Shown: piece after piece, positions 36,511-37,412 of the stretch
Numbering within the stretch: the first letter of the stretch is position 1
Layout of the letters: each line of letters opens with the position of its first letter
Source of the DNA: Escherichia coli
Lineage (GTDB): Bacteria; Pseudomonadota; Gammaproteobacteria; Enterobacterales; Enterobacteriaceae
Strand: one strand, 5' to 3'
DNA length: 64,000 bases
Assembly: GCF_050920415.1 (NCBI RefSeq)
Contig: NZ_CP169309.1
Translations under genes and position numbers: made by a program
The notes under the pieces: model-generated
What the model was told of the DNA's origin: nothing
What the model saw: the letters and a program-made list of their open reading frames with translations, nothing else
Database searches by the model: none

Positions 36511-37341
36511 TTACGCGGAGCGAGACGCTGTCGCCCCTGCGCGCGGCGGCAGAGCAAATGCCACCAGCGCCGGGATGAGATAAATAAACCAGACGGCGAC
36601 TTCGCTGACGCTCGGCGCTTCCTGATAACCAAAGATACCTTCCATCAGCGTACCGAACAGCGAGTGAGTTGAGAGCACCGCGCTCATATCGAAGGCGATT
36701 TCCTGAAAGTGGTTCCACAGCCCGGCTTCATGAAACGCGCGAATAGCACCAGCAGCCAGCCCTGCGGCGACGAAGAGAATAAACAGGCTGGTCCATTTAA
36801 AAAACGCGCCAAGATTGAGGCGAATACCGCCCCAGTAGAGCAGGAAGCCGAGCACCACGGCTGTAGCAAGACCGAGCATTGCACCCAGCGGAGGCCAGAT
36901 ACCGACATCTTGTTGAAACGCCGCCAGCAGGAAAAAGACCGACTCCAGTCCTTCCCTTGCAACGGCAAAAAAGACCATCATCACCAGCGCCCAGCCATGA
37001 TGATTCCCACGCTGCAATGCGCTATCGACTGCCTGTTCCAGTTGCACTTTGACGTTGCGCGACACTTTACGCATCCAGAAAACCATCCAGGTGAGGATCA
37101 CCACGGCAATCACCGCCACGATACCTTCGAACAATTCCTGCTCTTTTTGCGGAAATTCGCCGGTAGTTTCATTAATGAATATACCCAGCCCCAGGCACAA
37201 CGCAGCGGCTAGCAACACGCCAATCCACATGACACCAATCCATCGACCTCGCTGGGTACGCTTAAGATAGCTGGCAATCAGGCTGACAATCAGCGCGGCT
37301 TCAAGTCCTTCGCGCAACATAATGAGAAACGGAACAAACAT
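36511..37341 (-). CDS. efeU: ferrous iron permease EfeU (FTR1 family), apparently intact
   Basis: ORF 36511..37350 uninterrupted; two REGLE motifs (MLREGLEAAL, AVAREGLESVF); start probably MFVPFLIML. Confidence 0.9.
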   Translation of the reverse strand: MFVPFLIMLREGLEAALIVSLIASYLKRTQRGRWIGVMWIGVLLAAALCLGLGIFINETTGEFPQKEQELFEGIVAVIAVVILTWMVFWMRKVSRNVKVQLEQAVDSALQRGNHHGWALVMMVFFAVAREGLESVFFLLAAFQQDVGIWPPLGAMLGLATAVVLGFLLYWGGIRLNLGAFFKWTSLFILFVAAGLAAGAIRAFHEAGLWNHFQEIAFDMSAVLSTHSLFGTLMEGIFGYQEAPSVSEVAVWFIYLIPALVAFALPPRAGATASRSA

Positions 37342-37390
37342 GCCACCCACCCTTAAACGTTTTTCTGAGTCAATCTATGCAAAGAAAAGT

Positions 37391-37412
37391 AAATCGCAGT
37401 GATAGCGATTAT
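37391..37412 (-). promoter_or_regulatory. Fur-box-like sequence upstream of efeU
   Basis: tgatagcgattatcattac resembles the GATAATGATAATCATTATC consensus; a second partial match (tgataatgatgag) lies near 37447..37461. Confidence 0.5.

Follow-up and report, generated by a model that had tools for sequence, protein, structure and literature searches.

An intact efeU gene in what is very probably a standard efeUOB operon of Escherichia coli

Introduction

The EfeUOB system of Escherichia coli, its control by Fur and CpxR and its defect in strain K-12 were all described in 2006-2007. K-12 EfeUOB is cited as non-functional owing to a frameshift in efeU, whereas other strains have a working system (PMC2808357; PMC4746246). 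In the 64-kb stretch of E. coli DNA analysed here, which we call the window, a preliminary description had found efeU uninterrupted and had read efeUOB as probably functional and Fur-regulated, with two Fur-box-like sites upstream. The locus raises the question of whether efeU is indeed whole at the position where the K-12 gene is broken, and whether its partner genes and its upstream region are those of a usable, iron-controlled operon. As set out below, the region is very probably the standard, intact efeUOB operon (formerly ycdNOB), which encodes the E. coli EfeUOB ferrous-iron uptake system.

The efeU reading frame and the K-12 frameshift

The efeU gene occupies positions 36511-37341 of the minus strand and encodes an intact inner-membrane iron permease of the Ftr1/OFeT type with a length of 276 residues. 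According to the open reading frame listing and the translation, it runs from an ATG at 37341 to a stop at 36511 with no stop codon in between. The listing itself gives a slightly longer minus-strand frame, 36511-37350, which opens with a GTG at 37350 and codes for 279 residues; we took the ATG at 37341 as the start, as RefSeq does for the identical gene of strain MFDS1022581. Overlapping and antisense frames within efeU were rejected as genes, being mechanical open frames in coding DNA that is under strong purifying selection in the efeU frame.

Pairwise alignment with efeU of K-12 revealed a single indel: K-12 is without one G at nucleotide 106 of the coding sequence, where the window reads GGATTGGTG and K-12 reads GGATTGTG. 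The GG dinucleotide at nucleotides 106-107 (37235-37236, minus strand), the site of the inactivating K-12 frameshift, is intact in this alignment. The K-12 translation leaves the frame after residue 35 and then runs into a stop, and RefSeq flags efeU of K-12 MG1655 as a "frameshifted" pseudogene. The flag and the single-G deletion together bear out the statement of the preliminary description that the K-12 gene is frameshifted. Its claim of an uninterrupted frame in the window holds as well, as there is no internal stop in 36511-37341 and the G missing from K-12 is the sole indel. The check that it had proposed, alignment to the K-12 pseudogene and to the O157 allele, exposed neither an indel nor a premature stop in the window, and the protein turned out to be identical to EfeU of O157:H7 Sakai. 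Repairing the frameshift of K-12 EfeU also yields a protein identical to that of the window.

The efeU region (window positions 36400-37600) was found in 5417 of the 5426 complete E. coli genomes. Counted with a 40-nt probe that is able to seed only across the K-12 deletion, the K-12-type frameshift is present in 367 of the 5426, and among the matches listed these genomes are overwhelmingly laboratory derivatives of K-12. Because the frameshift occurs in these 367 genomes only, an intact efeU is the norm in E. coli, and hence an intact efeUOB in the window carries little news. There is nothing new in the intact operon, as the literature already covers the gene family, the operon with its regulation and the K-12 defect; the result matters little beyond correct annotation and is useful as a sanity check.

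EfeU and its two partners

EfeU matches the NCBIfam EfeU equivalog model NF041756 along its full length with 331.2 bits (cut-off 255), TIGR00145 with 351.7 bits (cut-off 303.8) and the Pfam FTR1 family (PF03239) with 300 bits. A Pfam MFS_1 match of 27 bits, below the cut-off of 33.4, was rejected as an artefact of hydrophobic helices. Both REGLE motifs, which had been described as kept, are present at residues 10-14 and 129-133, and a hydropathy scan places both of them within hydrophobic stretches. In the Kyte-Doolittle profile, six segments rise above the threshold. The REGLE-bearing TM4 stretch (approximately residues 117-140), whose charged residues keep it slightly under this level, was added by eye to give seven, and the resulting profile is consistent with the seven helices that have been published. 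A search of the PDB found no solved relative of EfeU.

The second gene, efeO (35326-36453, minus strand), encodes a periplasmic protein of 375 residues that combines a cupredoxin with an M75 (imelysin) domain and in which a Sec-type signal peptide was read by eye. EfeO scores 774 bits against NCBIfam PRK10378 across residues 1-375, contains the Pfam domains Cupredoxin_1 and Peptidase_M75, and matches the solved E. coli structure PDB 7wgu end to end (E=1e-229). The third gene, efeB (34049-35320, minus strand), encodes a Tat-exported haem peroxidase of the DyP type with a length of 423 residues. EfeB scores 609 bits against TIGR01412 (cut-off 428) and matches the solved E. coli structures PDB 2y4f and 3o72 end to end (E about 1e-256); it carries the RRR of a Tat signal at residues 14-16, the GFKDG motif at 232-236, H329 and R347. 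All three efe genes are intact and, across their full length, lie far above the NCBIfam equivalog cut-offs.

The name "deferrochelatase/peroxidase", which RefSeq and NCBIfam give to EfeB, points to another reading of the same intact genes. Their main role would then be not the uptake of free Fe2+ but the extraction of iron from haem, in which EfeB would act as the deferrochelatase and the freed iron would enter through EfeU and EfeO. Deferrochelation is summarised as one proposed function of EfeB, but the role in peroxidation and ferrous-iron oxidation is better documented, and EfeUOB supports Fe2+ uptake (PMC9174327). The sequence discriminates neither the haem-iron nor the Fe2+ role, and the two are not mutually exclusive. 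As the main role of the operon we consider haem-iron extraction improbable, and ferrous-iron uptake is the function that we assign below.

The three genes are co-directional in the order efeU-efeO-efeB, with gaps of 57 nt and 5 nt between them, and they are flanked by putP upstream and phoH downstream. Directly downstream of efeB, at the 3' end of the operon, lies a REP/BIME repeat array (33790-34045, minus strand) with an Rfam naRNA4 match inside it (33856-33933, minus strand). A terminator search 3' of efeB found no canonical intrinsic terminator, only these repeats. In the otherwise identical record of MFDS1022581 the array differs by an indel of approximately 100 bp, which amounts to a variation in repeat copy number.

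Sequence conservation of the operon

Compared with O157:H7 Sakai, efeU differs at 41 of 831 nucleotides, all of them synonymous, without a single amino acid change (pN/pS 0). The corresponding differences are 33 of 1128 nucleotides and one residue (V29I) in efeO, with a pN/pS of 0.014-0.025, and 92 of 1272 nucleotides and 14 residues in efeB, none of the latter at D235, H329 or R347, with a pN/pS of about 0.06. The pN/pS values were computed against K-12, the Nissle-labelled genome EcN_Sk and strain 139; in efeU, the last of these has the same nucleotide sequence as Sakai. Synonymous divergence (pS) is about 0.20 for efeU and about 0.26 for efeB, and the substitutions are overwhelmingly synonymous. 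The EfeU protein is perfectly conserved over this synonymous divergence of approximately 20%, which marks the permease as tightly constrained. That efeU, efeO and efeB are all under purifying selection speaks for an operon in use.

The upstream region

The putP-efeU spacer measures 219 bp (37342-37560) in the window and in B2-type strains, and the B2 genomes NRG 857C and S88 align over its whole length. In K-12 it is 542 bp long and contains what appear by eye to be REP-type sequences, and in O157:H7 Sakai and strain 139 it extends to approximately 2.7 kb and holds the hypothetical gene ECs_1262 of 447 codons. At the putP end of the spacer, a strong intrinsic terminator of putP (37488-37516, minus strand), with a stem of 13 bp and a T-run after it, lies between this gene and the efeU promoter. 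A sigma-70 promoter is predicted at 37440-37469 (minus strand) by a consensus match only, 9 of 12 positions, with the hexamers TTTACA and TACATT on either side of an 18-nt spacer.

When all 19-mers of the window, in either orientation, were scored against GATAATGATAATCATTATC, the top score in the 64 kb went to a single sequence, the Fur box CGTAATGATAATCGCTATC at 37401-37419 (minus strand). It precedes the efeU ATG by 60-78 nt and agrees with the consensus at 15 of 19 positions. A score of this size was reached in 0.16% of the shuffles of the 220-bp spacer (P about 0.002). The box is invariant in five lineages, namely the window, K-12, EcN_Sk, strain 139 and Sakai, and so is the entire 80-nt block that leads from it to the efeU ATG, while the same lineages differ by approximately 5-6% overall and by approximately 20% at the synonymous sites of coding DNA. 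A Fur box has been computed for efeU in a study of an ExPEC strain whose efeU and efeOB genes were up-regulated when it was exposed to serum (PMC4145685). Should the promoter prediction be correct, the box of the window would lie past the transcription start, in the early transcribed region (about +14 to +32), and not over the -35 and -10 elements.

The second of the two sites described upstream of efeU, there placed near 37447-37461, is a weak, distal Fur-like half-site at 37442-37460, which overlaps the predicted -10 element and the promoter spacer. It reads TCATCATTATCAC in the window and in the B2-type promoter, but ACATCATTTTATAA in K-12 and O157. Both sites might be functional and form an extended Fur operator over the -10 element and the leader, as the distal one holds a good half-site, ATCATTATC, sits over the predicted -10, and hexamer arrays are common among Fur operators (see also PMC4145685). 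However, the distal score of 12/19 was reached in 29% of the spacer shuffles, which is the level of chance, and neither K-12 nor O157, both of which have documented Fur control of efeU, has conserved the site. We find an extended operator rather doubtful, and the distal sequence is probably not an independent Fur box. Hence, only the proximal, conserved box remains of the two sites, and its coordinates had been slightly off: the interval given for it, 37391-37412, is shifted by approximately 7-10 nt, covers 12 of its 19 bases and enters a neighbouring CpxR-like box.

This CpxR-like box, GCAAA-N5-GTAAA at 37379-37393 (plus strand), lies inside the invariant leader and matches the scanned consensus, GTAAA-N5-GTAAA, at 9 of 10 positions. 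Across the window, 5 such matches were found against 4.1 expected, so that by sequence this candidate is not distinguishable from chance. Its position fits the published CpxAR regulation of efeU, in which CpxR acts negatively (PMC9600279).

The upstream region also bears on whether the operon could be intact and at the same time silent or impaired in this lineage, be it through the promoter variant or through the 14 substitutions that EfeB carries relative to O157. The -10 element and the distal region do differ from those of both K-12 and O157, as does the length of the spacer. Yet the strong purifying selection on efeU, efeO and efeB points to continuing use; EcN_Sk, the only B2-type locus examined, has the same short promoter type; the B2 genomes NRG 857C and S88 align over the whole spacer; and the catalytic residues of EfeB are kept. 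Silencing or impairment of the operon appears highly improbable to us. The earlier reading of efeUOB as probably functional and Fur-regulated is supported at the level of sequence by the intact genes, their near-identity to the O157 proteins, the purifying selection and the conserved Fur box. Unlike K-12, the strain from which the window comes would be expected to import ferrous iron by way of EfeUOB.

A rare and divergent lineage

Positions 1-24000 of the window and its efeU are 100% identical to E. coli MFDS1022581, but only approximately 15 of the 5426 complete E. coli genomes are at least 99% identical to the window. Over positions 1-24000, the window is only 97.3-97.8% identical to other E. 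coli, and approximately 97.5% to K-12. Between efeB and torS, a stretch that takes in putA, rut and tor (33880-64000), the identity to K-12 falls to 94-95.6%, whereas K-12, EcN_Sk and O157-like strains differ from one another by only 1.6-3% at efeUOB. This low identity to other E. coli, especially between efeB and torS, identifies the lineage as rare and divergent, and the segment as especially so. The lineage is possibly cryptic clade I, and the hyper-divergent segment may be recombinant.

A more far-reaching scenario would combine two elements, the import of the efeUOB-putAP-rut-tor segment from outside E. coli sensu stricto and the promoter variant shared with B2 strains, with its short spacer and its extra Fur-like half-site over the -10. 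This variant would lead to a quantitatively different, tighter repression of efeUOB by iron than the K-12/O157 promoter type. We regard this combination as quite unlikely.

Other features of the window

An AT-rich insertion of 1.4 kb relative to K-12 (33-41% GC) lies at 51554-52956, between agp and yccJ. It contains two adjacent orphan reading frames on the minus strand, 51889-52407 (172 residues) and 52420-52788 (122 residues), both hypothetical. Neither has a significant match in Pfam or NCBIfam, where the best Pfam hits stay below threshold with E about 0.01-0.03, and neither has a match in PADLOC or PHROGs. The islet, which is carried by only 5 of the 5426 complete E. coli genomes and is annotated there as hypothetical, may be a small acquired module.

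The IS3 copy that K-12 carries beside dgcT/ycdU is missing from the window, together with the neighbouring pseudogene (24281-24367; 23658-24320). Beside the tRNA-Ser gene (Rfam tRNA match at 23589-23673), tandem repeats resembling those of rtT/tyrT yield several mutually offset BLAST alignments. In the upstream region of phoH, CTGTCAT repeats that resemble a Pho box were seen by eye at 33720-33745. The Rfam family Ysr251, a Yersinia antisense sRNA, matches the window with 194 bits at 32519-32712 (plus strand), on the strand opposite the 3' end of phoH; the conserved coding sequence of phoH, and not a separate RNA, is the probable cause of this match.

Proposed mechanism

The EfeUOB route is analogous to that of Ftr1p/Fet3p in yeast, and its individual steps are established knowledge for the family. 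Transcription of efeUOB would start in the 219-bp spacer between putP and efeU. Fur-Fe2+ would repress it at 37401-37419, and, by analogy with the published control, CpxR(-P) probably acts as a second repressor through the neighbouring box at high pH. With repression by Fur-Fe2+ and, at high pH, by CpxR-P, the operon would therefore be induced by iron limitation and low pH. In the periplasm, EfeO, with its cupredoxin and M75 domains, would capture Fe2+, and the haem peroxidase EfeB would help to oxidise the captured ion. The resulting Fe3+ would then pass through the seven-helix permease EfeU, along a path that the REGLE (RExxE) motifs in TM1 and TM4 are expected to line. The same parts are described for the three proteins in the literature, with EfeU as an Ftr1p-like permease, EfeB as a Tat-exported haem DyP peroxidase and EfeO as a periplasmic cupredoxin-M75 protein (PMC9174327). 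For the operon in the window, we infer expression, binding by Fur and CpxR and transport activity from the sequence, and low-pH Fe2+ uptake from the 100% identity of its EfeU to that of O157:H7 together with the literature.

Comparison with known systems

The closest counterpart is the EfeUOB (YcdNOB) system of E. coli O157:H7, which reportedly works. It has the same gene order, efeU-efeO-efeB, and the same Fur box and 5' leader, but its nucleotide sequence diverges from that of the window by approximately 5% in efeU and by more in efeB, and the -10 element and the distal promoter sequence are different. Furthermore, the 1.3-kb extra gene ECs_1262, which in O157:H7 is inserted between putP and efeU, is absent from the window. 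The K-12 locus shares with the window the neighbours putP, efeO, efeB and phoH and an identical Fur box and leader, and is set apart from it by the missing G at nucleotide 106 of efeU and by its longer putP-efeU spacer.

EfeU of Nissle 1917 is said to be an Ftr1-like permease in which the two REGLE motifs are essential for iron uptake. The Nissle-labelled genome EcN_Sk (NZ_CP172017.1) shares the short, B2-type putP-efeU spacer with the window. Behind this short promoter, its efeU matches the K-12 pseudogene with 100% identity and shares the frameshift, and its putP is 99.9% identical to that of K-12. Such a pseudogene is at odds with the published functional EfeU of Nissle and could stem from recombination, from the history of the strain or from a problem of assembly or labelling. 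As its efeU equals the K-12 pseudogene base for base, we rejected EcN_Sk as an intact Nissle reference allele and used O157:H7 Sakai instead.

Beyond E. coli, the system resembles yeast Ftr1p/Fet3p and the bacterial OFeT systems, including EfeUOB/YwbLMN of B. subtilis, FtrABCD of Bordetella and cFtr1-P19 of Campylobacter, in its FTR1-family permease, its RExxE motifs and its oxidising partner on the periplasmic or extracellular side (PMC9174327). The identity of this partner is what differs, being a multicopper oxidase in yeast, P19 in Campylobacter, and a DyP peroxidase together with a cupredoxin-M75 protein in the operon described here.
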